In this document: positions 3,381 through 24,016 of the stretch, in pieces
Position numbering within the stretch: the first letter of the stretch is position 1
How the letters are laid out: every line of letters starts with the position of its first letter
IMG/VR virus record: IMGVR_UViG_3300049781_000059
Location: 10,199-74,198 of that record
From: a virus
Taxonomy: Duplodnaviria; Caudoviricetes
Reading direction: 5' to 3' (one strand)
DNA length: 64,000 nt
The notes under the pieces: model-generated
Seen by the model: only the letters and a program-made list of their open reading frames with translations
Database searches by the model: none
Told to the model about the DNA's origin: nothing
Made by a program: the position numbers and the translations under genes

Positions 3381-3415
3381 GCTCGGCCCACAACCAGCAG
3401 CTAGCACACAGGATA
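3381..3415 (-). promoter_or_regulatory. Conserved late-gene leader element, copy 1, with -10-like TATCCT
   Basis: Plus strand GCTCGGCCCACAACCAGCAG 3381-3400; AGGATA at 3410-3415; 29 nt from the start codon at 3351. Confidence 0.8.
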
Positions 3416-3448
3416 CCCACCGGTCGTCGGCTGCCAGGCGCCTCGCGG

Positions 3449-4171
3449 TCAGCCGTAGAGTTCCAGCATGACGAGCCCGGTGCCGCCAGCGGCGCCATCG
3501 TTGCGGTTACCGCCGATGGACGCCGCGCCGCCTGCTCCGGCTCCGTAGCCGCGCGGCAGTGTGCCGACGCCGTCATTTGAGCGGGCGAAGCCGCCGTAGC
3601 CGAAGCGGGAGTCGCCACCACCGCCGGACACGCCAAGGCCCCCCGACAGTCGGAACGCCGTACCTCCGGCGCTGCCACCGTATGCGAGCTGCCCTGTCCC
3701 CGCTCCCGGGCCCGGCACGCCGACCTGCGTGTTGAGCGTGGTCCCCGACGTCATGTTCGCCGGGGAGCCATCGCCGCCGTTCGCGAGAACAATGCCGGCG
3801 AAGCTGCTGCTACCTCCGGCGCCTCCGGCGTTGTTGCCCTCCCCGCCCGCGCCGCCGGCACCGACAGCGATCGTCTCGACGTCACCGAGCAGGTCCGCCT
3901 CAAGGAGCGACATGGAGTAGCCGCCGCCCGCGCCGCCGGGCCGCGTGATCGCCTCGTCGTTCGCTGCGTCCGCGCCGGCCGATCCCCCGCCGCCGCCCTG
4001 CACCTGTACGCGGATCCTGGCGAGCCACGGGTAATCCTCTTTGCGGAACTGGTAGGTGCCGGGCTCCTTGAAGACGAGGATCTCACGGAGTCCCATCGTG
4101 CCCGGATTGAGGCACAGTTCACCGGCGTCATTCACGTTGAAGTACTCGCCACAGGCGCAGACACTCGCCAC
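3449..4171 (-). CDS. Glycine-rich minor tail protein
   Basis: GTG 4171, MASVCACGEYF...; RIRVQVQGGGGGS, GGAGGGYS, IAVGAGGAGG and GGTGLVMLE motifs typical of phage Gly-rich tail domains. Confidence 0.8.
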   Translation of the reverse strand: MASVCACGEYFNVNDAGELCLNPGTMGLREILVFKEPGTYQFRKEDYPWLARIRVQVQGGGGGSAGADAANDEAITRPGGAGGGYSMSLLEADLLGDVETIAVGAGGAGGEGNNAGGAGGSSSFAGIVLANGGDGSPANMTSGTTLNTQVGVPGPGAGTGQLAYGGSAGGTAFRLSGGLGVSGGGGDSRFGYGGFARSNDGVGTLPRGYGAGAGGAASIGGNRNDGAAGGTGLVMLELYG

Positions 4172-4196
4172 AGCACACCCCGTCCTCGGGAAGTCT

Positions 4197-4231
4197 GCCC
4201 GGCCCACAACCAGCGGCTAAGGGGAAGGGTA
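4197..4231 (-). promoter_or_regulatory. Conserved leader element, copy 2, with -10-like TACCCT
   Basis: GCCCGGCCCACAACCAGCGG 4197-4216; AGGGTA 4226-4231; 25 nt from start 4171. Confidence 0.85.
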
Positions 4232-4250
4232 GCGCCCGTGTTGCTGCTCG

Positions 4251-4805
4251 CTAGGGGGCTGTGGGCGGCTCCGTCGGTGCCGGCTCGTTGACGGGTGGCG
4301 TCTGGGGCAGTGGCACGGCCGTGCAGTGGACGGTGATTCCGGGTCCGGCAGGGATGGTGGGGAGCAGTCCGAGACCGAGAAGGGGGCGGGTGCGCCAGAC
4401 CTGCAGGACGGCGGCCTCGGTTGTGACGTCGAGCAGTGTGACGGTGAGGCTGGTGTTGTCGTCGGGTTCGGTGTCGACTGGCAGTGCGGAGATCACGGGG
4501 GGTGAGGTGAGTGGTGCGGGGAACGTCCACAGGGCGCGGCCTGCGTTGTCGGTGACGGTGAGGCCTGCGAGTGGTGGCGTGCCGGGTGGTCCGGCCGGCC
4601 CGGGCTCGCCCTGGGGTCCGGGGGGTCCGGGCTCGCCGGGTCGTCCTGTGTCGCCCTGGGGGCCGCGCTCGCCGGGTGGTCCGGGTGTTGCTGCTCGCGT
4701 CCGTGCCGATACTTGAGCTGCTCGTGCCTGTTGCCGTACTTCCCGTAGTACGCCCGCCATGGGGCTGTCCGGGTTGCGGCGGGCGGCTGATCCTCGCACT
4801 GCCAT
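4251..4805 (-). CDS. Collagen-like minor tail protein
   Basis: Gly-X-Y run [34 protein letters not shown] followed by a small beta-rich domain. Confidence 0.8.
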
Positions 4806-4806
4806 G

Positions 4807-5814
4807 TCATCCCCCTGCCGGGGCGAGGTGCACGGCGACGGTCTCGCCCGTGCTGTCTTCGGTGACCTTCAGACCGTTGATCTTCATCGACTGGTTGATG
4901 GTGCGGCATGTCCGTGTGGTGGTGACGTCGACGCACCAGCCGGGCACGAGCGATTCGAGGTTGATCGCGGCGTCGGGTGACAGCGTCGCCTCTTGCGAGG
5001 AGATGAACACCGGCGCCGGAAGTGCGCCGCGGCGTCGTGAGCGTGCCGCGGCGTCCGCCGACGCCTGATCAAGGATCGAAGTCTCTTCGACGTACTGCTC
5101 GAGTAGCCCGTAGTACGGGTCTTTGCCGCCCGCGATGCCGAGGGCGCCGTCGCGGCCTTCGACGATCCAGCGGGTTCCGAGGGCGGTGCCGTCCTCGGAC
5201 ACGGTGAGCCCGTCGGGGAAGTCGGCGTCGGTGAGCCGTCCGACGCGCGCCTGGTGGTCCTCCGGCATGAGTAGGATGCGGCGGCCGACGGTGGTGAAGT
5301 CGATGCCTGTTTCGGCGAGTTTCCGCAGGTGATCGCCGGTTTGGCCGATGCTCTGTTCGTACTCGCGGTCGCCGAGGATGCGGGCCCGGCCGATGATTTG
5401 GACTTCGTGTCCGGGGTCGTCCGGTGCGAAGCCGTCGCGGATGAGCCAGGCCGCGATCTCTGTCAGGTCCCGTTGCGTGAAGTGGATCGATTCGTGTGGG
5501 ACGCGGCGGTCGAGCCAGCCGAGCACGTCGACGGCTTGGATTTCGACGCCGTCCGCTGTCCAGTCCGGCAGGATGATGGGCCCTTCCCACACGAAGTGGC
5601 CGTTGCGGTAGATCATCAGGTTGTGTCGCCAGGTGCGGACGTTGGCGAGCGCGGCGCAGCAGCCGCGGTCGGGTTGGATTGTCACGCGGGCTGAGCTGAG
5701 GTCGTCCAGGACTCGTGTCCATTCGACTTTGGTCAGCACGTCCGCCGTGGTGATCGTCGCGCCGTCCCGGTCGACGATCCGCGCCGTGTGTGAGCCGCAG
5801 CCGAGTGTCGTCAT
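4807..5814 (-). CDS. Minor tail protein (Tal/hub-like)
   Basis: ATG 5814, [18 protein letters not shown]...; [15 protein letters not shown] and GWLDRR motifs of actinophage minor tail proteins; second gene after the tape measure. Confidence 0.75.
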
Positions 5815-5840
5815 GCCGGGCCGTCCCTTTCCCTGTGCGT

Positions 5841-5873
5841 GCCCGGCCCACAACCAGCGGCGTGGCAAGTCTA
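5841..5873 (-). promoter_or_regulatory. Conserved leader element, copy 3, with -10-like TAGACT
   Basis: GCCCGGCCCACAACCAGCGG 5841-5860; AGTCTA 5868-5873; 26 nt from start 5814. Confidence 0.85.
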
Positions 5874-7310
5874 GAGTCCTGGCCCGTACTCGAGTCCTGT
5901 GAGCGCGAGCCGGATCGTCGCATCGTCGGCCGGAGTGAAGATCGCGTCGGCGTGGATTGCGACGCAGTACGAGGCGCAGTCGAGCAGCGGGAACGTGAGG
6001 GGTGCGCCGTTGCGGCCGTAGGCGTCCGGTGATCCCTCGCAGACGCCGCCGCACTCGACGATCGCCCGGCCGATCTGCCCGTCGAGGCGGAGTGTGCCAC
6101 CGGCTGGCACATAGGCGATCTCGTAGACGCTGTGCGGGTTGCAGCGCTCGGCGTCGACTACGTCTTCGCACGTCATGCCTTCGTGGTTGTCCGTGCGCTC
6201 GTAGATCTCGACGGTGATCCGGCGCAGGGCCTGACTGCCGGCATAGATTTCGATCATCGGTGCGGCGCCGAACCACCGCGGCCACGCCTCCAGGTCGAGT
6301 TCGAGGTACGTCGAGTTCACGGCGATCGCCCGGCAAAAGCACGTGTCCGGTTCCGGAGGGGCCGGTGGTGTCGGTGTCTGACACCTCGGATCCGCGCACC
6401 GTTCCTGCGGGTCCGGGCATGCGGCGAGCCGGCACGTCTGGTCGCAGGGGGCGTCGCGGTCCAGGACGGACCAGGACACCGCGCAGTCGGCATCGTCCAC
6501 GACCGGCGCCGTCACCGAGTCGGCCGTGCACGCCGCGTCCGGCTCCAGACAGACAGGGCTGCTCGGTGCGGTCGGGCTGCGGTGTACACACCAGGTGATG
6601 CACTCGGCGCCGTCATCGGTGGGCAAGGCCAGGTCCAGGGTCGGTATGGGGTCGGACCACTGCCACGGGGATGCTGCGGTGAGAACGAATTCGACGGTGA
6701 TGATGTCGGCGCCGGAGCTGCATTGGCCGCTGGTGCAGCCGTCGCCGGAGCGGCTCGTCACCCGCGGCCCGTCGATCAGTGCGACGCGGCGCAGTGTCCG
6801 CCGGTGCCGCGCCGCGAACTCGTCTGGGGTGAGGCCCTCGCCGGGACAGCAGTTGTAGATCGTCATGCAGTCGTCGCTGCAGGGGCCGCCGCAGCCTGCG
6901 AGTGCCTGTCGTAGCCAGCGCAGCCCGTACTCGGCGCCGCAGCACGAGGCGCCGAGCAGGAGGCCCGTCACGGTGACGGTGAGGGGTTGGGGGACGGCAG
7001 GGCCGATGACGGCGCCTCCGGCAGCGGACTGCGTCACCGTCCGGGAGACGGGGTTGTCGTCGAGCCCTTCGACGGTGAGGACCAGCAGTCCGGCGAACTC
7101 GCCGGACTCCGGCACGTCCGGGTCATACCAGGGGGCGTTGTCCTCAGCCGGTGTGGTGTAGGGCTCGTCGCCGACGAGTTGCGCGGTGAACGTTTCGCAC
7201 GCGCAGACGCCGATGCTGTCGAGCGGTGACCCGACCGTCTGGAGATACGTCTCGAGCCGGGCCGAGTTGGCGATCTCGACATCGCCGAGCGCGAGGTAGC
7301 CGTCGAGCAT
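5871..7310 (-). CDS. Cys-rich minor tail protein (distal-tail-like)
   Basis: ATG 7310, MLDGYLALGDVEIANSARLETY; first gene after the tape measure; many Cys clusters. Confidence 0.72.
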   Translation of the reverse strand: MLDGYLALGDVEIANSARLETYLQTVGSPLDSIGVCACETFTAQLVGDEPYTTPAEDNAPWYDPDVPESGEFAGLLVLTVEGLDDNPVSRTVTQSAAGGAVIGPAVPQPLTVTVTGLLLGASCCGAEYGLRWLRQALAGCGGPCSDDCMTIYNCCPGEGLTPDEFAARHRRTLRRVALIDGPRVTSRSGDGCTSGQCSSGADIITVEFVLTAASPWQWSDPIPTLDLALPTDDGAECITWCVHRSPTAPSSPVCLEPDAACTADSVTAPVVDDADCAVSWSVLDRDAPCDQTCRLAACPDPQERCADPRCQTPTPPAPPEPDTCFCRAIAVNSTYLELDLEAWPRWFGAAPMIEIYAGSQALRRITVEIYERTDNHEGMTCEDVVDAERCNPHSVYEIAYVPAGGTLRLDGQIGRAIVECGGVCEGSPDAYGRNGAPLTFPLLDCASYCVAIHADAIFTPADDATIRLALTGLEYGPGL

Positions 7311-7333
7311 GGGCGAGCCCTTCAGGATGAGTG

Positions 7334-7373
7334 GCCCGGCCCACAACCAGTCGGCAGCTGTTTGGCAAGTCTA
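7334..7373 (-). promoter_or_regulatory. Conserved leader element, copy 4, with -10-like TAGACT
   Basis: GCCCGGCCCACAACCAGTCGG 7334-7354 (1-nt insertion); AGTCTA 7368-7373; 23 nt from start 7310. Confidence 0.8.
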
Positions 7374-7402
7374 GGCAGCCGGAAGTCCCAGCCTGTCGGC
7401 GT

Positions 7403-10400
7403 CTACATTCCGTAGGCCAGCGCCATGCGGTGCATGACACGGCGGGCCGTCGCGTCGGGGTCGCCGACCGCCGCCATGTTGAAGACGGGGGCGATCGTCA
7501 CTGTCTGCGCGCCACTGCCGCTCCCAGAGGGTTCGGCGCCGATGATGCCCATCAGCCCGGACTGGGCGACGAGCTGCCGCGCCCGCTTGGGTTTCGTCAA
7601 CGGGATGATCACCTCGGGTCCGGCCTCGCCGACGAGTGCGTGCGTGGGCCCCCACACCATGCCGCCCTCCGCGAACGGCAAGTACTTTTTCACGGCGTCG
7701 GGCAGCCCGCTCTTGATCGAGGACATGATCCGCCCGCCGATGTCCCCCAGAGCACCGATGATCTTCCCCGGGAGTCCCGTGAAGAGGCCGACAATCCCGG
7801 AGATCAGACTGGACACGGCGCTCTGCACCCCTCCGACCGCGCTTGTGAAAGCACTGGAGATCTTCGATCCGACCGACGACAGCGCCGATCCGATCTTGCC
7901 GGGCAGTCCCGAGAAGAACGACACGACGGACGAGCCGAAGCTGCGCGCCGCGCCGAGCGCCTGCGTACCGGCCGACGTGACAACCGAGGTGATCTTTCCG
8001 GGCAGCGCCGAAATCGCGGACGCAGCCCGCCCGGGGAGCTGCTGGAAGAACGACGCCGCCGACGACAGGAACCCCGAGATTGCGGAGGTCGCCGTCGAGA
8101 ACGCCGAACTGAGGACGCCGAGCAGCGCCGCGCCCAGCGACTGCAGGGCCGACACGATCCGGCCGGGCAGCTCGGTGAAGATGAACACCACGGCCGCGAT
8201 CGCCGTCAGCAACGCGATCGCGAGTCCGGCGATGGCTTGGACGAACAGATCGACGAGCAGGCCGGGCAGTGCCTGGAGGACGGCGAGGATCTGCCCTGGC
8301 AAGCCCGTGAAGAACGTGATCACCGTCGTGAACGCCGTCGTGATCCACGTGCCGATCGTCGTCACGAGCGTGGAGAAGAACACCGAGATCGTCGACCCCA
8401 GGCTCGACAGCGCCCCGACGATCATCGTCGGCAGGTTCGTGATGAACGTGACCGCGCCGGTCAGGAAGCCGAGCAGCCCGGACAGGACCCCCACCACGGC
8501 GGAGATCACCGGCACGACGGCCTGGATGATCAGCCACGACTCGAAGGCGATCGCCGCCTGGAGCAGCGGCGCGACGATCGAGAGGATCTGCCCGACGAGC
8601 GGCGCCAGGCTCGCCACGAACTCGGCGATCGGCGGGACCAGCGGCAGGATCGCGTCGACCAGCGCCAGGAACACCTGGATCAGCGACGGCAGGATCGGCA
8701 GCAGCGCGCCGATGATCTGGTTGATCAGCGGCAGGAACGCGTTGACGACCTGGATCGCCGCGTCCGCGAGCGCCGTCAGCAGCGGCGCCAGCCCGGTGAT
8801 CACGGACGCGAGCGCCCCACCGAGCGCGGCAGCGAGCGGCAGCAGAGCTTGAGCCACCCGCGCGAAGGCGTCCGCGAGGGGCGGCAGGACCGGCATCAGC
8901 GCGCCGACCAGGGCGGCGATGATCGGCTGGAACAGTGTGACCAGGTTTTGCAGGACCGGCGCGAGGACCGTCGCCAGCGACGCAACGAGCTGGCCGACGA
9001 GCGGCAGGATCGGCGCCAGCGCGGTGATCACTCCGCCGATCGCCTCACCGACCGGGCCCAAGCTGGGGCCGATGACGGCGAAAGCGTCGGCGAGGCCCTG
9101 CGCGACCGCGGACAGGCTCGGGGCGATCGCGGCCAGCGCCGGGCCCAGGGCGTTGACGACGCCGACGATCGCCGGGCCGATCGTCGTGAAGATCGGCATG
9201 AGGGCCGGGGCGATCGCGCCGACCTGCTGCACAAGCGCGGACAGGATCGGCCCGAGCTGCTGCGCGATCGTCCCGACCGTGCGGAAGATGTTGCCGATCG
9301 CGTCCTGGCCGGCGGCGGAGTTGACGAACTCGGCGAACTGGCCGGTGATCCGCTGCAGGTTCGCGAGGAGCCCGCCGCCGGACGCGTTCGCGGCCTGGAA
9401 GACGCCGGAGAGGATCTGCCCGACGTTCGACGCGATCGCGCCGAGTTGCCGGAACACATCGAGCGCCCCGCGGACCTCCTCGACGGCCTGCCCGGACGCG
9501 GCGAGCGTCGACAGCCAGGTTCCGAACTCGGCGCCGATCTGGGCGATGCTCGCGCCGACCTGCGGGCCGAACGCCTCCAGGACGGCGGCGGCGATGTCGA
9601 GGAGACCGGCGGCGACCGGCACGATCGCCGCCTGCAACCCGGAGGCGGCCTGCGTCGTACCCTGAATGATCGTCCGCAGCGGCACGAGTGCCTGCTGTGA
9701 CGCGGCGAACTTGAGGCCCTCGCTGGCTGCCTTGCCGAACTCGGCGGACAGCGCCGCCAGTTCCGTGCGCAGCGGTAGCAGGTTTCGCAGCGCCCCTTCG
9801 ACCTGCCCGGCGAATTGGGCAAAGAACGACTGCTGGATCGCCTGCTGAACGGCCTGGAGTTCGGGCGCCAGCTCCCGCACCGCGCGGACTGCGGTCTGCG
9901 CGGCCGGGGCGAGCTTGTCGAGCGCCTCCTGGAACTCCTCGGCGCTGCCCGTCAACGCCGCCGACAGAGCGTCGGATACGCCGAGGACGGCGAGCCGCAG
10001 CGTGTTGATGGCGACCTGCGCTCCGGCGACGGCAGCGGGCAGCGCGGCGACGATGCCGGCGGCGGGGGCCAGCGCAGCGACGAGCCCGCCGACCGCGGAG
10101 GCGGCGCTCGCCGCGGCGATCCCCACGGCGCCCAGTACGAGAAGCTGCTGCAGCGCCCCGGCGACACGGCCGGCGATGCCGCCGAGGCCGCCCAGCGCAC
10201 GCGTCAGCCGGTCCGAGTCGACATCGACGTCCGCCCGGACCGTGACATCCGGCGGCCGGTAGCCGCGGATGCGCCGGTCGAGGTCGTCGAGGTCCGGGAC
10301 AACACGGATCGAAACCTCTTCGCCGGCGAGCGCCGCGCGGATCCGGTCGACGAAGCCGGTCAGGTCCGGGGCGACCGGCAGGTTGATCGAGCCGAGGCCG

Positions 10401-10651
10401 CGGAGCCCGTCGAGGACTTGGGCGTCGAACCGGGACAGGTCCGGGTCGACACGGACGGACACGGCGGCGGCGTCGAGGCCGCGTTGAATGTTCCGGCGGA
10501 TCTGAGTGCCTGCGTCACGCGTCGCACGGTCCAGGGCGCGTTTGATGCGGAGGCCGACGTCACGGGCGTCAGCGACCGCATCACTGTCGTCGAGCGTGAT
10601 CGTGATGCGCGCGGAGCCGTAGTCCTCGCTGTCACCGGCTGGGGTGGTCAC
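7403..10651 (-). CDS. Tape measure protein
   Basis: 1082 aa Ala/Leu/Gly-rich amphipathic repeats, C-terminal FAEGG...HALVGEAGPEVIIPL; follows the chaperone pair. Confidence 0.93.
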   Translation of the reverse strand: MTTPAGDSEDYGSARITITLDDSDAVADARDVGLRIKRALDRATRDAGTQIRRNIQRGLDAAAVSVRVDPDLSRFDAQVLDGLRGLGSINLPVAPDLTGFVDRIRAALAGEEVSIRVVPDLDDLDRRIRGYRPPDVTVRADVDVDSDRLTRALGGLGGIAGRVAGALQQLLVLGAVGIAAASAASAVGGLVAALAPAAGIVAALPAAVAGAQVAINTLRLAVLGVSDALSAALTGSAEEFQEALDKLAPAAQTAVRAVRELAPELQAVQQAIQQSFFAQFAGQVEGALRNLLPLRTELAALSAEFGKAASEGLKFAASQQALVPLRTIIQGTTQAASGLQAAIVPVAAGLLDIAAAVLEAFGPQVGASIAQIGAEFGTWLSTLAASGQAVEEVRGALDVFRQLGAIASNVGQILSGVFQAANASGGGLLANLQRITGQFAEFVNSAAGQDAIGNIFRTVGTIAQQLGPILSALVQQVGAIAPALMPIFTTIGPAIVGVVNALGPALAAIAPSLSAVAQGLADAFAVIGPSLGPVGEAIGGVITALAPILPLVGQLVASLATVLAPVLQNLVTLFQPIIAALVGALMPVLPPLADAFARVAQALLPLAAALGGALASVITGLAPLLTALADAAIQVVNAFLPLINQIIGALLPILPSLIQVFLALVDAILPLVPPIAEFVASLAPLVGQILSIVAPLLQAAIAFESWLIIQAVVPVISAVVGVLSGLLGFLTGAVTFITNLPTMIVGALSSLGSTISVFFSTLVTTIGTWITTAFTTVITFFTGLPGQILAVLQALPGLLVDLFVQAIAGLAIALLTAIAAVVFIFTELPGRIVSALQSLGAALLGVLSSAFSTATSAISGFLSSAASFFQQLPGRAASAISALPGKITSVVTSAGTQALGAARSFGSSVVSFFSGLPGKIGSALSSVGSKISSAFTSAVGGVQSAVSSLISGIVGLFTGLPGKIIGALGDIGGRIMSSIKSGLPDAVKKYLPFAEGGMVWGPTHALVGEAGPEVIIPLTKPKRARQLVAQSGLMGIIGAEPSGSGSGAQTVTIAPVFNMAAVGDPDATARRVMHRMALAYGM

Positions 10652-10679: not shown

Positions 10680-10700
10680 GCCCGGCCCAGAACCAGTCGG
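10680..10700 (-). promoter_or_regulatory. Conserved leader element, copy 5
   Basis: GCCCGGCCCAGAACCAGTCGG; 28 nt from the tape-measure start; the nearest -10-like TAATCT lies further away (10732-10737). Confidence 0.75.
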
Positions 10701-10734
10701 CGGCGGCAGCTACTGCGCTGTCGCGATCTCCAGA

Positions 10735-11106
10735 TTATCTGCTACGTGCGCTTCCGAGGCGTGCGTCCTCGTTGGCGACCTGGGACATGAGTGCCTGCGC
10801 GGCGGCAAGGTCAAGGCGCGGCTTGGCCTGCCGTGCCCGGCCCTCACTCGATCTGCTGCCGCGTGCGTGGGGTGGCGGCGCGTACAGTTTCGCCCTGTTG
10901 CGCTGCCGTGCGGTGTCGTCCTCGGCTGCCGCGTCCATGGCGGCTTCGGCCGCGTTCAGCAGACGTTTCAGCGTCCACGTGTGCGGGTCGACGCCTTGGA
11001 GGGCGAGACTCCCGTCGAACGCCTCCCAGCTTGCGGCGAGGCTGTCGCAGATCCGGAAGACGGCATAGTAGGGCGGTTCCCGCCCCCGAACAGTTCGACG
11101 ACCCAT
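10735..11106 (-). CDS. Tail assembly chaperone, frameshift-extended (T-like) frame
   Basis: Minus-1 frame overlapping the 3' part of 10968-11504 (...EPPYYAVFRICDSLAASWEAFDG...); lies between the chaperone and the tape measure; no convincing start of its own. Confidence 0.7.
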   Translation of the reverse strand: MGRRTVRGREPPYYAVFRICDSLAASWEAFDGSLALQGVDPHTWTLKRLLNAAEAAMDAAAEDDTARQRNRAKLYAPPPHARGSRSSEGRARQAKPRLDLAAAQALMSQVANEDARLGSARSR

Positions 11107-11504
11107 TCGAGGAGTTCGACGATCACGCGGCTCGGCAGTCGCAGCGCGTCGACGACGCGTGCGCCTTCGTGCTGGTCGGCGAAGGCGCCCGCCTCGTCGA
11201 AGTCCTGGAAGGAGTCGAGGATCTTGCCGCCTTGGACGACGTCGAGGCGGGTGAAGAACTCGGCGGACTCGGCGAGCATCTGCCGGGCGAGGAACACGCG
11301 CACGGCGCGCATCGTCCGCCGCAGATCGTCCGTGTCGGCAGCGGTCAGGTTCTCCAGGTCGACGCCCTTCGCCTGCTGCGACTGACGCAGTTCGGCGTAG
11401 GCGTCCATGAAGTCGTCGCCGAACACCTCAGGCTCGAACAGGAGCTGGTGTTCGCCGATGGCGGCGACGTGGGGTTCTGTGTTGAGGGCGAACGTCTTCT
11501 GCAC
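10968..11504 (-). CDS. Tail assembly chaperone (G-like)
   Basis: 178 aa, position upstream of the tape measure; ...LLEWVVELFGGGNRPT followed by a low-complexity tail. Confidence 0.78.
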   Translation of the reverse strand: MQKTFALNTEPHVAAIGEHQLLFEPEVFGDDFMDAYAELRQSQQAKGVDLENLTAADTDDLRRTMRAVRVFLARQMLAESAEFFTRLDVVQGGKILDSFQDFDEAGAFADQHEGARVVDALRLPSRVIVELLEWVVELFGGGNRPTMPSSGSATASPQAGRRSTGVSPSKASTRTRGR

Positions 11505-11531: not shown

Positions 11532-11566
11532 GCCCGGCCCACAACCAGCGGCTTGTACGTAGGGTA
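11532..11566 (-). promoter_or_regulatory. Conserved leader element, copy 6, with -10-like TACCCT
   Basis: GCCCGGCCCACAACCAGCGG 11532-11551; AGGGTA 11561-11566; 27 nt from start 11504. Confidence 0.85.
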
Positions 11567-11590
11567 TCTGGCTGGGCCGCTGACCCGGGT

Positions 11591-11968
11591 TCAGCGCCCG
11601 AGTCGCAGGGCGCGCTGCAGGAATGGGTTGGGCCGGGTGCCGGGGTGGCGGACGAGTCGGGTGAAGACGACGTCGCCGCCGACCTGGAAACGGAGGGCCT
11701 TCGCCCGGCGGGGACGGATGAGGTGGGGCCTCGTCCCGTCGATGACGAATCGGACGGCCGGGTGGTCGCAGGTGATGACACCCTGCAGCCCGCGTGGCCC
11801 TTCGGTCACCTGCCAGTCGATGTACTGGCCCATGCTCCCAGGCGCCTCATCCTGCGCGATCCTCGCGACGCGCTCAGTGCGCTGGCTCATCCGCCGGTGG
11901 GCGGCGCCTCCACGAGCGCGTAGCAGGCGTGCGATACGGCCCGGGTCCACGGTCACCTCGACGCTCAC
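11591..11968 (-). CDS. Neck / tail-completion protein (HK97 gp10-like)
   Basis: GTG 11968; VRFVIDGTRPHLIRPRRAKALRF...VRHPGTRPNPFL motif. Confidence 0.75.
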   Translation of the reverse strand: MSVEVTVDPGRIARLLRARGGAAHRRMSQRTERVARIAQDEAPGSMGQYIDWQVTEGPRGLQGVITCDHPAVRFVIDGTRPHLIRPRRAKALRFQVGGDVVFTRLVRHPGTRPNPFLQRALRLGR

Positions 11969-13469: not shown

Positions 13470-14156
13470 TTACGGCACCGGGACGGGCACCGCCGCGTAG
13501 TCACACGACGGGACCGGCGGCGGTGTGGTCGTGACGAATGTGCGGCGGTGGCAGGAGCTGTCGAGCGGAGTGAGCATCGGGCCCGGGGTGCCGGCGGCGT
13601 CGGTCGGCTGGACGTTGTAGGGGCCGACGCCCCAGGCACCTCCGGCGCGCGTCGAGCCGGTGATCTGAAGTGTCACCGCCTCCGATCCGATCTCCAGGTC
13701 GCCGAGGAGACCGTTCGTCACCCACGGCAGCAGGAAGTAGATCCACTGTCCTTCGGCGCCTTCGACGCACTCTTCGCCGAGGACTTCCGCCCACAGTTCC
13801 AGGGCGAAGCCGGTGTCGCAGCGGACGCTGCAGGTGTCGAAGCCGATGGGGTTGCCGTCGTAGCCGAGGACGACGGGGTTGCCGGTGAGGATTTCGATCA
13901 GCTCCGGGGACACGCTGTAGACGTTCATCTCCAGGTCGAAGCCTCGGAAGGTGGGGCATCCGCGCTTGAAGCCGCAGACCCTCCCATTCGCCGCCTTGTA
14001 CTCGATGTCTTCGCCTTCGTCGCTGTTGTTGTTCATGGCGAGGCTGGCGAAGCAGTCGAAGACGAAGCCGTTGTCGACGCCGGGGATGGGGTTGCCGCAC
14101 TGGTCGAGCCGGGTGACGCGCATGACGTCGGCGTTGGCTATCAGTGGACAGGACAT
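13470..14156 (-). CDS. Major tail protein
   Basis: MSCPLIANADVMRVTRLDQCGNP; size and position fit an actinophage major tail subunit; has its own leader element and terminator. Confidence 0.8.
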   Translation of the reverse strand: MSCPLIANADVMRVTRLDQCGNPIPGVDNGFVFDCFASLAMNNNSDEGEDIEYKAANGRVCGFKRGCPTFRGFDLEMNVYSVSPELIEILTGNPVVLGYDGNPIGFDTCSVRCDTGFALELWAEVLGEECVEGAEGQWIYFLLPWVTNGLLGDLEIGSEAVTLQITGSTRAGGAWGVGPYNVQPTDAAGTPGPMLTPLDSSCHRRTFVTTTPPPVPSCDYAAVPVPVP

Positions 14157-14182: not shown

Positions 14183-14215
14183 GCCAGGCCCAAAACCATC
14201 GGCGTAATCAGTCTA
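14183..14215 (-). promoter_or_regulatory. Conserved leader element, copy 7, with -10-like TAGACT
   Basis: GCCAGGCCCAAAACCATCGG 14183-14202; AGTCTA 14210-14215; 26 nt from start 14156. Confidence 0.78.
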
Positions 14216-15501: not shown

Positions 15502-15508
15502 CAGCCCG

Positions 15509-18500
15509 TTACGCGCTGGCGCAGCTGCGCACGGTGCCGAGGGGCGTGTAGTCGTTGCCTTGCAGGTCGGTGTCCCTGGTCACGACCGTCCCGTCCAGGT
15601 CCTGCACCCAGCGGATGAACGTGCCCGCGTCATCGCAGAGGGTGATGGGCTGTTCCTGCTTGCACGGGATGATCCGGGTCCCGTCGGGCAACGTGTCGTG
15701 CCGGTTCTCGAACTGGTCCAGGTAGTAGACGTCCCCGGAGCAGCAGACCATCTTCGTCCAGCTGGCCTGCCCTGGGACGGCGTAGGTGAGGATGAAGTGC
15801 GCGATCACGCCCGCACCGTTGCTGGCGTCCGGCTGCGAGGCGTTCTCATTTACCTCGAAGTACAGGAAGTTCTCACCAGCGACGGCGCCCGTGAGGGGGA
15901 CTGGGGCCTGCTTGTACGGTGTCGCCGTCGAGTAGAAGCCGCCGCCGTTCACCCAATCACCGTCGTTGATGCGGTAACGCACCGGCACTTGGTCGGCGTT
16001 CAACGTGGTGATTTCCATCTTGACCGTGCTCAGGTCGGCGGCGGCCGGGATCGTGAACGACGACCGGGCCCACCAGTTCGATGGGTTCGCGATCTGCGGG
16101 CCCTCGCCCGGCAGGCCCGTGCTGACGACCATGGCACCCGCGTGGGGGGCTATCCATCCGGCCGTGGGCGAGTTGGGTTGGCCGTTGTTGCGGGTCGCAG
16201 AGTCCGCGGTCTGCCAGGCAGTGCCGGGGTACTTCTTGTTGTACATCGGGTACCAGGTGGTGACCGCAGACGGGTCGCTGCCTCCGCCCGAGGGTGCCCA
16301 CGTGAAGGTGTCCGCCTCCGTCCCGTCGTCCCGCTTTTCCGGGTTGGACACGAACTGGACTTCGCCGGTCGCGCGCGGCGTGACGCAGATCTGTACCGGT
16401 TCGCAGCACGGCTCGGGTTGGCACAGTACGGCCGCGCCGCGTGGGGTGTAGCTGGTGGCCCCGTCCATCAGGGTGTCGATGACGGCCGTGACCGACCCGT
16501 CACACCCGTGGCAGATGCGCCGCATGAATTGGCCCGGGGGCGTCATCTCGATGGCACCCAGCCACAGAGTGCGCTGTACCCCGCAGACGTCGTGCGTGGC
16601 CGTACCAAGCCAGTCCACGATGACCGATGTGGTGAGGCTGGTGGTGCGCAGCCGTGCGGCCCGCAGCCGGGTCGGGTTGGCCATGTCCGCGCAGATGTTC
16701 GCCTGGTCCTGCTGCGCCGTGACACACAACAGGCCGGTCACTGGGTCGAACGTGTATCCGCTGGGCAGCTCGACCGGTTCCACCGTGGTCGGAAGCTGGA
16801 CGCAGTTGCCGGTGGCGCCCGGCGTGTCGTCGTAGGCCAGGTGGATGCTGAACTCGATCGTCACCGGGACGGACGCGCCGATGGTGTACGCAGTACCCAC
16901 CGTGTTCGGCGCAGGCTCGCCGTTGCCCCACCACGCGCCGTCAGCGTTGGCGATCTTGCTCTGCACCGCCCCCGCCGGACCTGCCGCGTCCCCGCGCACG
17001 GTGTAGACCACGCCGTTGCTGAGTGTCTGTGTGGACGCGTTCAGGATACGGATGGTGGCCGGATCGTCCCCACCGTCGTCGCACAGGACGATCGTTTCGC
17101 AGTCGCTGCACGACGACGTGTCGGGGCACAGGCCGACCACGCCCGACGGGGTGTAGACGGCCGAGCCGTCGAGGGTGGTGTCCCGGACGGACGTCACCTC
17201 ACCGTCACAGTCCCGGCAGATGGTCCGCAGGAAAGGCACCGACGGCACCGTGCTGATCGAACCGGTCCACGATGTGCGGAACGAGCCCTGGAAGGCGTAA
17301 CGGCCGCCGAGCCACGTTGTGGTGAACTCGGACACCGGCCCCAGAGTCCGGAAGCGCGGCGAGTGGGCCAGATCGGGGCTCGCCATGAGAGCCGTCTGTT
17401 GTGCCACCGTGAGGCCGTGGTCTGGGCCCACGGTGACGCGGGACGTGGCGGCGTCGAACGTCCAGCCGGGCGGCAGGAAGACCGGCGTGACGTTCGGCGG
17501 AAGCTGCATCGTGTTGGCGGTCGGACTGGACGCCTGGTAGATGAAGAACACACTGAACTCGGTGACGGTGGGACGAGCCAACGTGAACCGATACGGAAGA
17601 ACCTGTGTCAGCGGGAACGACTCGGGGTTGCCCCACCAGGCACCGTCGGTGTTGCTGATTTCCGACGTGACGGGCGAGCCGAACGAGGACGTAGCGCCAC
17701 TGGTCGATGTCCATCCGATGCCGTTGGACATGGTGCCGCTGCTGACGTTCGCGCCGTAGATCGTGGCCTCGTCGTCGGACTGGCCGTCGCACAGGATCTG
17801 CGACTCGCAGTCGCCGCAGTCTCTTGCCGTCGGGCAGTTGCCGACCGTGCCGAGTACCTGGTACGCCGTGACACCGTCCGGCAGGTAGTCGAGCGTGGTG
17901 TCCGGCAGTCCGTCGCAGCCGTAGGTGATGGCGCGCACGAACGGAACGACTGTGATCAGCGTGGACGTCACCGTCTCAGGACGCACGAGAAGGTCACGCG
18001 TGGTCCCGGCATTCGTTGTCCAGTCGGAGACGCGAATGGTGACCGTGCCGGACGACGGCGCCGTGAACGCGAGCGGCGCCCGGAATCCCAGCGGCCCACT
18101 CGCAGTACTGCCGTTGGACAGGTTCTCGATACGGCTGGCGATGACGGCACTACCGTCAAGGATCTCCAGCAGGTACATGGCCTCAGGCAGCGGCGTGACG
18201 CCCCCGCCGTTACCGTTCCACCCGGCCTGATAGTTGAACTCATACGGCTGGCCCGGCACCACACTGGACACGGTTCCCGTGGCCACACCGTTGACCGGCG
18301 TCTGCCCCTCGGAGAAGACGAGCGTGCCGCTGCTGTTGTAGACGCTGCCCGTCAGCGTGAAGCCGCCGCCCGGTGTGGGGATCGGTGGCTGCTGCGGCGG
18401 GACCGTGTCGCACAGTTCGATCAGTTCCGTGTCGCCGCAGTCGGGCTCGGCCGGGCAGTCGATCGGGTTGGCCGGGATGTAGGGCTGCGTGAAGTCCCCG

Positions 18501-19558
18501 TCGAGCCACGTTCCGAGGAGCGTCGGCGGGGTGTCGCTCGTGGTGCTCACGGCCCACAGCTCGATGTACCGGTTGATGACCGTACTGTCGCCGTTGACGT
18601 CGTCGCAGCCACAGCGTTCGACGACCTGCCGGGCACTCGCCGTGTCGCCAGTCGGGCCGCAGGCGCCGATCTCGCCTTGCACGGCGTAGATGGTGGTGCC
18701 GTCGAGGGTGGTGTCCGTGACGGCGGCAGTGCCGGTGCAGGTGCGGCAGATCGTCCGGAGGAACGGCACGGCCTGTGTCTCGTCGGTCCCGGGCACGCCC
18801 GGCCCGAGGAGGGAGACGTCGTCAACGAGGGCGTCAATGAAGTCGCCGCCCACTTGATCGCTGAAACGGACCGTCATCTCGGTGTCAGTGGCGACGATCG
18901 GCGCGGGGCCGACCACGCCGTCGGCCGGCCACTGCGGGCCGCCGCTCGTTTCCACGGGGGCGACGGTCTCGGAGTAGAGGACCGCACCCGACCCGTCGAC
19001 CACCTCCACGAGGACGCTTTGGGGAGTGGTCCCGCCCGTGCCCCAGATACCGATGCGGGCCGACAGGGTGTAGGTCAGGCCGGGGGTGACGGTCACCGTC
19101 TGCTCGGCCGACCCTGCCGGGTTGTTGTCCGCTGACAGGTCGAGGAACCCAACCGACCCGTCCGGGCTGCTGGACGGGACGTATCGCGCGCCCCCGGTCA
19201 GCGTCCACCCCGAGGTGTCCGCCGCGAAGTTGCCGTTGGTGATGCGCTCGGGGGTCTCACCCGGCGTAGAGGCCGTGGTGACGTCGCACAGGAGCAGCGT
19301 CTCGCACGTGCACGAGTCGGGCGGCGGGCAGGCCTGCAGGGTGCCTTGCGGCACGTAGACGGCTCCCGTTGCGGGGTCGACGGTGCGCGTGCCGATACGG
19401 TCGCCGCTGCTGGCGTCGTAGACCGGCTCCACGAGCACGGTGGCGGCCACGGTGCCGTCGGCGAGGACGTCGCACAGAACGACCGGTTCGACGTCAACGC
19501 GCGCACTGGCCGCCGGATTACTCAACAGGACTGGCTGGCCGCAGCCGCATCCGCTCAC
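15509..19558 (-). CDS. Large modular Cys-repeat protein with inserted carbohydrate-binding-like domains (putative head fibre / adhesin), 1349 aa
   Basis: Start reassigned to GTG 19558 (overlaps the upstream stop), MSGCGCGQPV. Recurrent CETxxLCD...PFLRTICRxCDG...DTTLDG..Y.P.G.V..C units; ERITNGNFAADTSGW resembles the start of CBM4/9- or DUF642-like domains. Confidence 0.75.
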   Translation of the reverse strand: MSGCGCGQPVLLSNPAASARVDVEPVVLCDVLADGTVAATVLVEPVYDASSGDRIGTRTVDPATGAVYVPQGTLQACPPPDSCTCETLLLCDVTTASTPGETPERITNGNFAADTSGWTLTGGARYVPSSSPDGSVGFLDLSADNNPAGSAEQTVTVTPGLTYTLSARIGIWGTGGTTPQSVLVEVVDGSGAVLYSETVAPVETSGGPQWPADGVVGPAPIVATDTEMTVRFSDQVGGDFIDALVDDVSLLGPGVPGTDETQAVPFLRTICRTCTGTAAVTDTTLDGTTIYAVQGEIGACGPTGDTASARQVVERCGCDDVNGDSTVINRYIELWAVSTTSDTPPTLLGTWLDGDFTQPYIPANPIDCPAEPDCGDTELIELCDTVPPQQPPIPTPGGGFTLTGSVYNSSGTLVFSEGQTPVNGVATGTVSSVVPGQPYEFNYQAGWNGNGGGVTPLPEAMYLLEILDGSAVIASRIENLSNGSTASGPLGFRAPLAFTAPSSGTVTIRVSDWTTNAGTTRDLLVRPETVTSTLITVVPFVRAITYGCDGLPDTTLDYLPDGVTAYQVLGTVGNCPTARDCGDCESQILCDGQSDDEATIYGANVSSGTMSNGIGWTSTSGATSSFGSPVTSEISNTDGAWWGNPESFPLTQVLPYRFTLARPTVTEFSVFFIYQASSPTANTMQLPPNVTPVFLPPGWTFDAATSRVTVGPDHGLTVAQQTALMASPDLAHSPRFRTLGPVSEFTTTWLGGRYAFQGSFRTSWTGSISTVPSVPFLRTICRDCDGEVTSVRDTTLDGSAVYTPSGVVGLCPDTSSCSDCETIVLCDDGGDDPATIRILNASTQTLSNGVVYTVRGDAAGPAGAVQSKIANADGAWWGNGEPAPNTVGTAYTIGASVPVTIEFSIHLAYDDTPGATGNCVQLPTTVEPVELPSGYTFDPVTGLLCVTAQQDQANICADMANPTRLRAARLRTTSLTTSVIVDWLGTATHDVCGVQRTLWLGAIEMTPPGQFMRRICHGCDGSVTAVIDTLMDGATSYTPRGAAVLCQPEPCCEPVQICVTPRATGEVQFVSNPEKRDDGTEADTFTWAPSGGGSDPSAVTTWYPMYNKKYPGTAWQTADSATRNNGQPNSPTAGWIAPHAGAMVVSTGLPGEGPQIANPSNWWARSSFTIPAAADLSTVKMEITTLNADQVPVRYRINDGDWVNGGGFYSTATPYKQAPVPLTGAVAGENFLYFEVNENASQPDASNGAGVIAHFILTYAVPGQASWTKMVCCSGDVYYLDQFENRHDTLPDGTRIIPCKQEQPITLCDDAGTFIRWVQDLDGTVVTRDTDLQGNDYTPLGTVRSCASA

Positions 19559-21000: not shown

Positions 21001-21398
21001 CAGCTATCCCCCTTGGGGTGGGCTTGGCGGCGGTGGGTGTTCCGGCCGCGTTCGGTGGGGAAGGTGCGCGGGCACAGATCGCAGGCGTAGACGCCGCTGC
21101 CGTCGTCGTCGGGGGTGGGTGCGTCCTCGAGCGGCGCGAAGTCCGGGGCGGGAGCGTTCGGGGTGAACGCCTCTTCGGTGGCCACGCCCAGCAGGTCCCG
21201 GCCCTCGTCGTCCTGGGGTGACACGTACCGGTGCCCGTCGACGAGCGACCCGATCAGCAGCTCTTCCGGCATGTGCGTGAACATGCCTGGGGGGACGGCG
21301 AACTCGCTGTGGGAGCACGTCTCGACCTGCGGGCTCTGGGCGGTCGCCCACCGGGCGAATGCCGCCCGCCGGTCAGGCGCGGGCCGCACTTTGATCAT
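21000..21398 (-). CDS. Protein with C-terminal C2H2-type zinc finger
   Basis: ATG 21398; YACDLCPRTFPTERGRNTHRRQAH = C-x2-C-x3-F-x8-H-x4-H. Confidence 0.75.
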   Translation of the reverse strand: MIKVRPAPDRRAAFARWATAQSPQVETCSHSEFAVPPGMFTHMPEELLIGSLVDGHRYVSPQDDEGRDLLGVATEEAFTPNAPAPDFAPLEDAPTPDDDGSGVYACDLCPRTFPTERGRNTHRRQAHPKGDS

Positions 21399-21400
21399 CG

Positions 21401-22237: not shown

Positions 22238-22262
22238 CTGCCTCACGCCCTCTCAAGTCCGG

Positions 22263-22297
22263 GTGCAGCCCCGGCCGGCAGATGGCCGGGGCTGCAC
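22263..22297 (-). terminator. 14-bp stem-loop after the major capsid gene
   Basis: GTGCAGCCCCGGCC-ggcagat-GGCCGGGGCTGCAC. Confidence 0.75.
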
Positions 22298-22308
22298 GCA
22301 CGGGTAGG

Positions 22309-23955
22309 TCAGGCGACGGGGCAGGCGGCCGTGGCGCGCGGTCCGACAGAGCCGTCAGCGCAGACCGGGATGGTGATGGCTCGCGCCTGCGGCCCGCGGT
22401 AGATGAGGGCGTTGCAGGACTCGAAGAACAGGGCGGTCATGTCGTTGGTGCGGAGCAGGGTGCTGTCGTGGATGACCCCGAGGTTGATCTCCGGGCCGCG
22501 GCCCATCTGGAACGCGCCGGCCGGGTAGAGCAGGGCCTGCATGGTGGCTGGCCAGGCGGTGGCGGGGGTGGTGCCGCCGATGTTGGCGGGGACGGCCGGG
22601 GGGAGGCCCTTGACCCACTGGACGCGGACGCCGAGGTCGGCGAACGCGTTCTCGACGCAGTTCTGGTTGAGGGTGCAGACGTCGACGCCGTCGCGGCGGG
22701 CGATGTCGGCGAGGAACATGTTCTTCGCCCAGTACGGCAGGACCAGCTCGAGGCCGATCCGCTCGCAGAGGCTGAACCGTTCGGTCATGTCGGCGATCTG
22801 CAGGGCGAGCGCCCCGTACACGGCGGAGAACGACGCGAACGACGGTGCGGTGGTCACTGCGGTGGCCTTGGTGAGGGCCTGCTGGTACATGGCGGCCTTG
22901 AGACGCATCTCGTAGGCGACCATGGCACGCCGGATGTAGAAGGCGTTCAGCTCGGGGAAGAACCGCTGGGAGAGGATGCCGGCCTGGATGCAGGCGCCGT
23001 AGGCGGTGCAGCGGACTTCGACCGGGTCCACACAGGGGATCTTGAAGCAGGGCTTCGTCGGGTCGCCGTCGACCGCGCTGATGTCGTCGGCTTCGGTCCA
23101 GATCCACGACATCGCGGTGACGTCCAGCTCGGGCGTCATGTAGTAGCGCAGGCCACCACGCGACAGGTTGAGCTCGGGCAGGTCCCACAGGTTGTCGGGA
23201 CACGAGATCTCGGTGAAGTCGTACACCGTCTCGGAGGGGGCGCACCAGCCGCCGGATGCGACGAGGTCGCCGCCCTTGAGGCGCCGCTGGTCGGCGGCCT
23301 TGAGGACCTTGGTGGTGCCCTCTTCCGGGGAGCCCGCATCGTTGATGATCAGGTCCTGCGGGAACGGCAGCTGGTAGGACGCGGCGAGGGCCTTGCCGCC
23401 GTTCGCGACCAGGTTCGCGACCTTGGTGACGGACTCGGTCAGCCCCTCCATGTTCAGCGGGGCGCCCAGGGTGGCGCCGGGGACCTCGGCGGAGGCGACG
23501 ATCGTGACGGCCGGGGTGCCGGAGTTCGGCATCGGCTGCCGCGGCTGCCGCTCACGCACGGTCGCCAGGCTGATGATCGGGCGGCGCACGACAGCAGAGG
23601 ACGCGGCGACTTCCTCGACGGCCGGCTCTTCCGCTTCGGCGGCCGGCTCCTCCTCGTCGACGGCCACGGTCTCGTCGCTGTCGCTGTCGGTGGCGGTGTC
23701 TTCGCCGAGTACCTGCACGGCGAGTTCGTCGAGTTCGGCGACGGCGGCCTGTGCGGCTTCGACGCGGGTGGCCTGCTCGCTGCGCAGGGCTTCGATGCCG
23801 GTGGCCAGCTCGCGCAGGGCGGGCAGGTCGTCGGTGGTGAGGTTCGGGTCGGCACGCCGGGCCTGGAATGCCTCGGTCGCCTGGGTGATGTGAGCGTCGA
23901 GGTCCTCGGCGCTCAGGCTGCTGAAGTCTGTGGGGAGCTCGTAAGGCTCGGCCAT
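22309..23955 (-). CDS. Major capsid protein with N-terminal scaffold-like domain
   Basis: 548 aa; acidic coiled-coil N-terminus, then LVASGGWCAPSETVYD and LPELNLSRGGLRY motifs of cluster-B-like actinophage capsids. Confidence 0.85.
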   Translation of the reverse strand: MAEPYELPTDFSSLSAEDLDAHITQATEAFQARRADPNLTTDDLPALRELATGIEALRSEQATRVEAAQAAVAELDELAVQVLGEDTATDSDSDETVAVDEEEPAAEAEEPAVEEVAASSAVVRRPIISLATVRERQPRQPMPNSGTPAVTIVASAEVPGATLGAPLNMEGLTESVTKVANLVANGGKALAASYQLPFPQDLIINDAGSPEEGTTKVLKAADQRRLKGGDLVASGGWCAPSETVYDFTEISCPDNLWDLPELNLSRGGLRYYMTPELDVTAMSWIWTEADDISAVDGDPTKPCFKIPCVDPVEVRCTAYGACIQAGILSQRFFPELNAFYIRRAMVAYEMRLKAAMYQQALTKATAVTTAPSFASFSAVYGALALQIADMTERFSLCERIGLELVLPYWAKNMFLADIARRDGVDVCTLNQNCVENAFADLGVRVQWVKGLPPAVPANIGGTTPATAWPATMQALLYPAGAFQMGRGPEINLGVIHDSTLLRTNDMTALFFESCNALIYRGPQARAITIPVCADGSVGPRATAACPVA

Positions 23956-23982
23956 GACCGTGTCTCCTGTGACTGCTAGGAG

Positions 23983-24016
23983 ACCCGGCCCACAACCAGC
24001 GGTCGAAAGAATCTTA
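23983..24016 (-). promoter_or_regulatory. Conserved leader element, copy 8, with -10-like TAAGAT
   Basis: ACCCGGCCCACAACCAGCGG 23983-24002; ATCTTA 24011-24016; 27 nt from start 23955. Confidence 0.85.

Follow-up and report, generated by a model that had tools for sequence, protein, structure and literature searches.

A conserved, covarying leader RNA hairpin behind −10-only late promoters of Streptomyces-type phages

The structural module and its repeated element

The stretch of DNA analysed here (the window) comprises 64,000 nucleotides (nt), bases 10199–74198 of the 74,198-bp IMG/VR virus record IMGVR_UViG_3300049781_000059, with a G+C content of about 69%. Its minus strand encodes the structural module of a siphovirus of Streptomyces type, in which a short element is repeated before eight late genes. 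This element is a real conserved RNA hairpin located in the leaders of the late mRNAs. It is apparently undescribed so far; literature searches and Rfam yielded no paper or family describing it. Rfam 15 gave no match at gathering score across the whole window, and at E <= 5 the region 3300–24100 returned only chance miRNA or snoRNA matches elsewhere.

The module is arranged in the order of DUF1360 membrane protein, portal, 66-amino-acid (aa) zinc-ribbon protein, MuF-type head morphogenesis protein, 51-aa protein, and 548-aa major capsid protein. These are followed by several virion proteins, the major tail protein, a gene at the chaperone position, the tape measure, the tail-tip genes, and an amidase. 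The capsid protein is 48–54% identical to the capsids of Streptomyces phages Xkcd426, Mischief19, TurkishDelight, phiSAJS1, and TP1604/YDN12, and about 30% identical to its counterparts in Gordonia, Microbacterium, Rhodococcus, and cluster B-sized mycobacteriophages.

Exact matches to the core of the element, TGGTTNTGGGCC, number eight and are confined to the minus strand, where they extend from the capsid gene to the tail tip (3385, 4201, 5845, 7338, 10684, 11536, 14187, and 23987). None of 100 shuffles equalled this count. The complete element is 21 nt long, gCCGCTGGTTnTGGGCCGGGC, with copies 4 and 5 extended to 22 nt by one extra bulged base. A position weight matrix scores the eight copies at 26.6–31.6 bits and the next best site at 15.7 bits, and a covariance model assigns 25–36 bits to the copies and 20.5 bits to the next best site. 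No copies beyond the eight are present in the whole 74,198-bp record. The first-pass annotation of this DNA had described eight co-oriented, intergenic minus-strand copies, and the shuffles and both models bear this out. A one-mismatch match at 27340 was rejected as a chance occurrence, since it lies within the portal/MuF reading frame and reaches only 10 bits. The top non-copy match of the covariance model, at 51692–51712 on the plus strand (GCTGCTCGTCGTGGGCGGGGC, 20.5 bits), is situated inside a plus-strand reading frame and is probably also a chance occurrence.

The start codon follows 20–28 nt past the end of the element, or 24–32 nt past the core, in all eight window copies. These copies, their −10 hexamers, and the genes they lead are as follows:

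3381–3401, minus strand: hairpin copy 1, a GCTGC...CGAGC variant with a compensated U-A pair; −10 TATCCT at 3410–3415; leads a 282-aa tail gene (2512–3360, minus strand)
4197–4217, minus strand: hairpin copy 2; −10 TACCCT at 4226–4231; leads a Gly-rich tail fibre gene (3449–4171)
5841–5861, minus strand: hairpin copy 3; −10 TAGACT at 5868–5873; leads a minor tail gene (4807–5814)
7334–7355, minus strand: hairpin copy 4 (22 nt); −10 TAGACT at 7368–7373; leads a 479-aa tail gene (5871–7310)
10680–10701, minus strand: hairpin copy 5 (22 nt, with the two-base bulge GA); leads the tape measure gene (7403–10651)
10732–10737, minus strand: −10 TAATCT of copy 5, with a hairpin between it and the element
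11532–11552, minus strand: hairpin copy 6; −10 TACCCT at 11561–11566; leads a 178-aa gene at the chaperone position (10968–11504)
14183–14203, minus strand: hairpin copy 7, a compensated A-1/U12 variant; −10 TAGACT at 14210–14215; leads the major tail protein gene (13470–14156, minus strand; phrog_792)
23983–24003, minus strand: hairpin copy 8, an ACCGC...GGGT variant with A-U as its outermost pair (34.4 bits); leads the major capsid gene (22309–23955, minus strand; phrog_777)
24011–24016, minus strand: −10 hexamer TAAGAT, 7 nt upstream of copy 8, with a 12-bp hairpin just upstream of the hexamer

The downstream genes thus correspond to those named at first reading, namely capsid, major tail, chaperone position, tape measure, and four tail-tip genes.

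Covariation, promoter linkage and distribution of the hairpin

More than 360 copies from IMG/VR proviruses, actinomycete genomes, and the isolated phage TurkishDelight share the same layout. On the sense strand the element forms a stem-loop of eight pairs with two 5' bulges and an N-U-R triloop. Counting from the T of TGGTT, the pairs are -5:15, -4:14, -3:13, -1:12, 1:11, 2:10, 3:9, and 4:8, with G-2 and U0 bulged, so that the 21-mer is written (((.(.((((...)))))))) in dot-bracket form. Covariation was counted over 363 unique-context copies, and structure statistics were obtained from 48 distinct 21-mers. Four pairs covary, changing from G-C to A-U or from C-G to U-A or G-C. A14 always occurs with T at -4 (9/9 copies) and A13 always with T at -3 (11/11 copies), and all four variants of the -1:12 pair are compensated in Watson-Crick fashion. 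T15 is partnered by A at -5 in 12 copies and by G in 7, while A at -5 is accompanied by T15 in 12 of 15 copies. Among half-changed copies there are 85 wobbles (T-G or G-T) as against 3 mismatches (A-C), and C-A is never observed.

These associations are specific to the true partners, for which Fisher p values of 6e-15, 3e-13, and 3e-8 were obtained; sliding the partners by one or two positions gave p = 0.015 to 1.0. Overall, 96.1% of the cells are paired. Double-changed cells number 28, compared with 7.2 +/- 3.3 in shuffles (0/500 attain this number), and the structure scores 0.311 for covariation as against 0.186 for shuffles and 0.008–0.133 for slid partners. Both compensation beyond shuffled and slid controls and wobble intermediates, the hallmarks of conserved cis-regulatory RNA hairpins in general, are therefore found here. 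An unbulged register of the hairpin, the one of minimum energy, was rejected because it shows no covariation. As compensated variants precede several different gene families, they do not represent one inherited event. Since the half-changed intermediates on the sense strand are wobbles, the element acts as a single-stranded sense nucleic acid. A transcription bubble measures about 12 nt and a 21-nt hairpin cannot form inside it, which makes RNA the reasonable reading. Furthermore, the 12 apical bases and both bulges are invariant across more than 360 copies, in phages whose proteins are 30–55% identical.

The −10-like hexamers described earlier before the copies (TATCCT, TACCCT twice, TAGACT three times, and TAAGAT) are likewise substantiated. 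Six window copies have the hexamer 6–8 nt before the 21-mer, and in copy 4 the distance is 12 nt. Copy 5, to which no hexamer had been assigned, has TAATCT 30 nt upstream, beyond an intervening hairpin, an arrangement shared with the orthologous tape-measure leaders of relatives; with this TAATCT counted, a TANNNT hexamer accompanies 8/8 window copies. Promoter statistics were derived from 243 unique IMG/VR copies in 160-nt windows. A TANNNT starts at -25 to -17 from the core in 203/243 copies, with a background near zero elsewhere. The hexamer reads TA[ACG][AC]CT, its fifth base being C in 195/205, and the gap between hexamer and element is mostly 6–11 nt. Copies without a nearby hexamer are mostly the second of a tandem pair or belong to tape-measure leaders with an inserted hairpin. 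No −35 TTGACA-like hexamer was found in these windows, and anchoring on the −10 hexamer revealed no information content upstream. Similarly, a consensus scan returned 0 canonical promoters and no U-tract terminators. The −10 hexamer of host sigma-70 (HrdB)-type promoters is thus present and their −35 hexamer is missing. The proposed geometry, with the element downstream of the −10 box and within the 5' leader, holds for −10-only promoters, the transcript start being predicted.

The same kind of promoter also occurs at the upstream end of the module:

29997–30002, minus strand: TAGGCT, a −10-only promoter without hairpin, preceding the DUF1360, portal, zinc-ribbon, MuF, and 51-aa (P0003) genes

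As this site carries no element, the promoter type exists independently of the hairpin. Cluster BG phages contain many TAnnCTGG sites, which represent the same promoter type without the element. In these phages the −10-only TAnnCTGG promoters lie about 35 nt before many structural genes, and the leaders are C/A-rich and G-poor. GC-rich hairpins without a U-tract close upstream genes right before −10 hexamers, as seen in the window at 23900–24070 and 11560–11620 and in Rhodococcus phage Tonitrus at 17140–17190. Because these hairpins terminate the upstream genes directly before the hexamers, the order of the unit is hairpin, promoter, leader hairpin, and gene.

The exact 17-mer was found in 97 IMG/VR contig stretches, usually several per contig and on one strand per locus. 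Among 33 records searched whole, multi-copy carriers have 3–10 copies on a single strand, and the reversed control is essentially absent. Moreover, the exact 18-mer occurs in genomes of Streptomyces, Kitasatospora, Embleya, Nonomuraea, Planotetraspora, Planomonospora, Sphaerisporangium, and Micromonospora in the layout of hexamer, element, and start codon. Non-actinobacterial 18-mer matches (Brevundimonas and others) were set aside as single, coding, and devoid of a hexamer. In whole host genomes the element is restricted to one 15–35-kb cluster and is confined to prophage. A relaxed bipartite DNA motif, GCTGG-N5-GGCCGGG, was also considered at host genes and discarded, its frequency equalling that of the reversed control. 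At least three clustered copies are carried by 10 of 401 sampled Streptomyces species genomes (about 2.5%), and singletons remain near the control level. The scan of the record and related phages suggested at first reading locates copies in structural modules only and not at host genes.

The isolated temperate phage TurkishDelight (NC_073473, host S. scabiei) has nine copies, which precede the capsid gene, the major tail gene (tandem pair), the chaperone gene, the tape measure gene (tandem pair), and three tail genes. Across 14 genomes, syntenic placement was recorded 12 times at the capsid, 16 at the major tail, 14 at the chaperone, and 10 at the tape measure gene, the other positions being minor tail genes and, now and then, the amidase gene. 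Which tail-tip genes follow the element differs from genome to genome. Tandem pairs in relatives are spaced 38–39 nt apart in major-tail leaders and 23–26 nt apart in tape-measure leaders (for example at 18518/18557 and 22909/22935 of locus L107, and in genomes G023, G028, and G018), and the −10 hexamer stands only before the first copy. The window phage and the 13 other element-bearing genomes have in common only 3449–29991, from the DUF1360 gene to the tail fibre gene. Outside the module, the terminase, replication, and regulatory genes of these 13 genomes differ from those of the window. As only the module is common to the carriers, the structural module, its promoters, and its hairpins move as a unit.

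The central five bases are variable (TTGTG, TTCTG, TGCTA, TGTTA, or CGTTA), and different versions are mixed within one prophage. They constitute the hairpin apex (3:9, 4:8, and the triloop), in which U6 alone is constant in all versions. The cluster BG phages TP1604, Xkcd426, and Mischief19 (loci L230, L106, and L229) have the CGTTA-type variant in the leaders of the capsid and major tail genes, and the hairpin of their tape-measure leader has diverged further; the hairpin variant, GCYGCTGGCGTTAGGCCGGGTC, is limited to the capsid, major tail, and tape-measure leaders. In the capsid leader of Tonitrus (L292, 17246–17266) a TACAGT hexamer precedes the hairpin by 11 nt; within the hairpin, -4:14 is a flipped G:C pair and -1:12 has become A:U. 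The major-tail leader of Tonitrus has a TACAGT hexamer without the hairpin. The hairpin was not found in Saccharomonospora phage PIS 136, mycobacteriophage Suffolk (B1), or a Streptomyces rrn leader.

Leader folds, candidate partners and competing explanations

Some leaders harbour a second fold that competes with the hairpin. When whole leaders are compared with shuffles, the 5' half of the element takes part in less pairing, and its last bases pair more with downstream sequence. In the minimum-energy fold of 6/8 window leaders, the 3' half pairs with the region of the ribosome-binding site and start codon. The z-scores of this fold range from -1.1 to -3.8 in the window leaders and are strongest for the tape measure and the major tail protein. 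In copy 5, the 3' CCGGGC is the 5' arm of a 16-bp hairpin over the Shine-Dalgarno sequence and the GTG start (-31.9 kcal/mol, z -3.8). Complementary arms of the type CCGGGC(A)ACC...GG(T)TGCCCGG are kept in 22/22 collected tape-measure leaders, some with G.U wobbles and one with a shortened arm, and the full-length arm overlaps the start codon. The hairpins of the major-tail and capsid leaders differ in sequence and are constant in shape. Certain variants are compensated in both folds. In the major-tail copy of the window, the partner of U12 is A-1 in the hairpin and a downstream A in the competing fold; A12 and A13 behave likewise in the tape-measure leader of locus L073. A downstream A is the partner of U15 in 14 of the 18 copies that have this base, most of which are capsid leaders. 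Additionally, the 5' and 3' arms of the same leader reach -13.9 kcal/mol as against -12.5 for arms exchanged between leaders. For some genes, with tape measure, major tail, and capsid as the clear cases, a two-fold switch is thus well supported; as a rule for all leaders it is unproven. Over 337 leaders the mean z-score is -0.67, the hairpin supported by covariation appears in 0.9% of minimum-energy folds, and enforcing it costs a median of 8 kcal/mol, so that it would need help to persist.

Help might be provided by a protein, and a binding partner was sought by setting the record's full set of 873 open frames against TurkishDelight and 12 complete multi-copy records. A single stretch, about 29991 to 3449, is universal among these carriers; beyond its limits WhiB is the sole recurring protein (8/13), and no early-region protein common to the carriers was found among the records compared. 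TurkishDelight and the window phage share the structural module, WhiB (38% identity), and the N-terminus of a replication initiator and nothing else, and their repressors and other helix-turn-helix (HTH) proteins do not match. The candidates put forward by the first-pass annotation are not supported: the WhiB domain is missing from four complete records with 6–10 copies each, and other carriers lack the LuxR, C2H2, and multi-HTH proteins. The replication initiator and the terminase were also rejected as partners, not being common to the carriers. An HTH_36 protein with a C-terminal Cys cluster is encoded at 61313–62299 (minus strand), and its N-terminus is 40% identical to TurkishDelight gp71. 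It is adjoined by a 455-aa gene (59949–61316, minus strand) for a putative DnaB-like helicase, read by eye from the translation. The HTH_36 protein is probably a replication initiator rather than a late-gene regulator. RNA partners were considered as well. Pairing with 16S rRNA was dismissed, because the best duplex of -31.5 kcal/mol compares with -29.5 +/- 2.3 for shuffled elements, 15% of which do as well. A phage antisense or small RNA was likewise dismissed, as no outlying duplex exists in the genome; a tRNA-like RNA at 52620–52731 reaches -31.5 kcal/mol, roughly the 1st–5th percentile of windows.

Two small proteins of the module itself deserve consideration:

27735–27935, minus strand: P0001, a 66-aa acidic CxxC...CxxC zinc-ribbon protein between portal and MuF
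24375–24530, minus strand: P0003, a 51-aa MxCxC..KNR protein (start MGCNCG..KNR) just upstream of the capsid promoter

P0001 is present in 18/18 complete multi-copy records and in TurkishDelight (gp12) and is missing from 3/4 single-copy records. A direct search showed it to be missing from Xkcd426; in TP1604 and Mischief19 the portal and MuF genes overlap and no gene is annotated between them. The N-terminus of P0003 is basic, and the P0003 family occupies the same place in TurkishDelight (gp16, N-terminus), TP1604 (gp12), Xkcd426 (gp13), Mischief19 (gp13), Tonitrus (gp28), and PIS 136 (PIS_021). Because both proteins are confounded by shared module ancestry, they serve as leads only.

With moderate confidence, we propose that the promoter-proximal leader hairpin is bound by a putative factor that opens the ribosome sites of the virion genes. 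Each of the eight late genes, or the short group it heads, would form its own transcription unit. A hairpin would close the upstream gene, and a host-type −10-only promoter (TAnnCT) would then start the transcript at, or a few bases before, the 21-nt stem-loop. The invariant bulges and apex may serve as the dock for a trans-acting factor, either host-encoded or from the shared module. The hairpin is weak alone, and in many leaders its 3' half can pair with the region of the ribosome-binding site and start codon instead. With the factor bound, or the hairpin trapped while transcription proceeds, the ribosome site would stay accessible and translation of the virion genes would be switched on in concert, as with Com on Mu mom mRNA or a ribonucleic antiterminator (RAT)/antiterminator pair. 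Loading of an elongation or antitermination factor might be an alternative output of the hairpin. A stronger version, held only tentatively, takes the hairpin as the common operator of a single RNA-binding factor, a small module protein such as P0003 or a core host component, which would gate translation or elongation of all virion genes via two exclusive leader folds.

Several observations weigh against the proposal of a factor that opens ribosome sites. The 21-mer alone reaches -5.3 kcal/mol with z = +0.8 against shuffles, that is, it folds less well than they do. Over the 337 leaders, the competing fold is found in 67% as against 59% in shuffles (p = 0.06), and complementarity to the element in the region before the start codon is no higher for genes that carry it than for control genes. 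Sequestration of the ribosome site by the element as a general rule was accordingly rejected, and the switch may apply to some genes only, given the weak enrichment over shuffles and none over control genes. As for the factor, the search over proteins shared by the carriers yielded no confirmed partner. P0001 is acidic and missing from the cluster BG phages that carry the loop variant, and P0003 is a candidate partner by position and co-occurrence. The transcription start at the hairpin is a prediction. Moreover, every copy adjoins a promoter, and a role coupled to transcription would suit this at least as well as a role in translation.

A transcription-coupled role is embodied in processive antitermination or elongation-factor loading, which we regard as rather unlikely and yet as a serious rival. 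The nascent hairpin would act in the manner of lambda boxB/nut or, as HK022 put does, on RNA polymerase itself, so that polymerase from each late promoter would pass hairpin-rich intergenic regions and resist Rho. All copies lie within about 45 nt of a promoter and none deep in an operon, and hairpins close the upstream genes right before the promoters. An apex that is invariant across several host genera, with no phage regulator shared, would suit a conserved host partner such as RNA polymerase or Nus factors; no boxA-like motif or N-like protein was found, however, and a host rrn leader contains nothing similar. HK022 put, at about 70 nt, is also far larger than the element, U-tract terminators are not predicted, and short units with their own promoters do not obviously require read-through.

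The earlier reading had left a choice between an effect on the initial transcribed sequence through a phage activator, an antiterminator loading site, and an RNA-binding translational factor. The options of an RNA-binding factor and an antiterminator are favoured by the RNA-type covariation. A fixed effect of the initial transcribed sequence is disfavoured, because the distance to the −10 hexamer varies over 6–11 nt (about 30 nt with an inserted hairpin) and because tandem copies occur.

A purely cis-acting 5' hairpin, 0–5 nt from the RNA end, could shield late mRNAs from nucleases that depend on the 5' end (RNase E or J), or it could set the pace of RNA polymerase, in either case without a dedicated binding factor. 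We deem this explanation unlikely, yet a serious rival. It would require a stem only, whereas 12 apical bases and both bulges are invariant and the stem is weak (-5 kcal/mol); second tandem copies and tape-measure copies are, in addition, not 5'-terminal. Its merit is that the 6–11-nt gap after the −10 hexamer puts the hairpin at the predicted 5' end, before the genes of the most abundant virion proteins, and that another hairpin occupies the 5' terminus where the element is displaced in tape-measure leaders.

A duplex DNA site, either a stoperator-like repressor operator or an activator site for promoters lacking a −35 hexamer, is very unlikely. The asymmetric, intergenic copies in one orientation overlap +1 to +21, where operators often lie, and the promoters indeed lack a −35 hexamer, but tolerance of G.T and not of C.A half-changes is unexpected for duplex recognition. 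TurkishDelight and the window phage, moreover, have identical elements and no common repressor or early DNA-binding regulator, the element is absent from early regions and host genes, and its spacing from the −10 hexamer is variable. Finally, a recombination linker, in which identical 21-mers at gene boundaries would allow single tail-gene swaps between phages, agrees with the mosaic module, its variable tail-tip genes behind the element, and its differing flanks, but leaves the covariation and the fixed place between −10 hexamer and ribosome site unexplained, and is at best a side effect and highly improbable as the function.

Significance and comparison with known systems

The element is available in carriers suited for study, including the culturable temperate phage TurkishDelight on S. 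scabiei, the cluster BG phages, and prophages in about 1 in 40 sampled Streptomyces species. Since it is present in an isolated, culturable phage, its partner can be sought by pull-down and its role by compensatory mutants. For annotation, the element marks the starts of late transcription units. It also offers a compact promoter-plus-leader part for expression work in Streptomyces. If the tentative single-factor version is true, the hairpins would constitute a portable late-gene regulon that travels with the structural module among several actinomycete genera without a dedicated early regulator.

No known system that was compared matches the element in sequence, position, or defining features. 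Stoperators, known from Cluster A mycobacteriophages and R4-like Streptomyces phages, are duplex sites of the immunity repressor spread genome-wide. Like them, the element occurs in many asymmetric intergenic copies co-oriented with transcription; unlike them, it shows RNA-type covariation, is limited to late genes from capsid to tail tip, and has no common repressor. The lambda nut site consists of the boxB hairpin and boxA, is served by the N protein, and occurs in two copies per phage at early promoters, while HK022 put is a 70-nt cis-acting RNA of two hairpins. Both resemble the present case in that a small conserved hairpin is transcribed just after a phage promoter, and there it acts as RNA on polymerase. 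Here, in contrast, 8–10 copies stand at late genes, no second conserved box such as boxA was found in the flanks, and no N-like gene was identified. In Com on Mu mom and the RAT switches of the BglG/SacY family, the protein site overlaps an arm of a stabler hairpin, which masks the ribosome site or acts as a terminator, and binding redirects the fold. The element similarly overlaps an arm of a more stable hairpin hiding the ribosome site. Those systems have a single target and a known protein, whereas the hairpin described here has many targets and a competing fold that is clear only in tape-measure, major-tail, and capsid leaders.

Another parallel is provided by the start-associated sequences (SAS) and extended SAS (ESAS) of Cluster K mycobacteriophages. 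These, too, are short, asymmetric, co-oriented repeats before many actinophage gene starts, absent from the host and conserved across subclusters (PMC3203893). The SAS is 13 bp long, contains the ribosome-binding sequence, lies 3–7 bp from the start codon, and accompanies non-structural genes only (PMC3203893), and the ESAS inverted repeats show no RNA-type compensation (PMC3203893, Pope et al. 2011). The present element, by contrast, is no 13-bp AGGAG repeat; it spans 21 nt at 20–28 nt from the start codon with a separate ribosome-binding sequence, is tied to a −10 hexamer, belongs to structural/late genes only, and covaries. The timing and dosing of actinophage late genes are still largely obscure and the SAS/ESAS repeats still unexplained; the leader hairpin offers a concrete handle.

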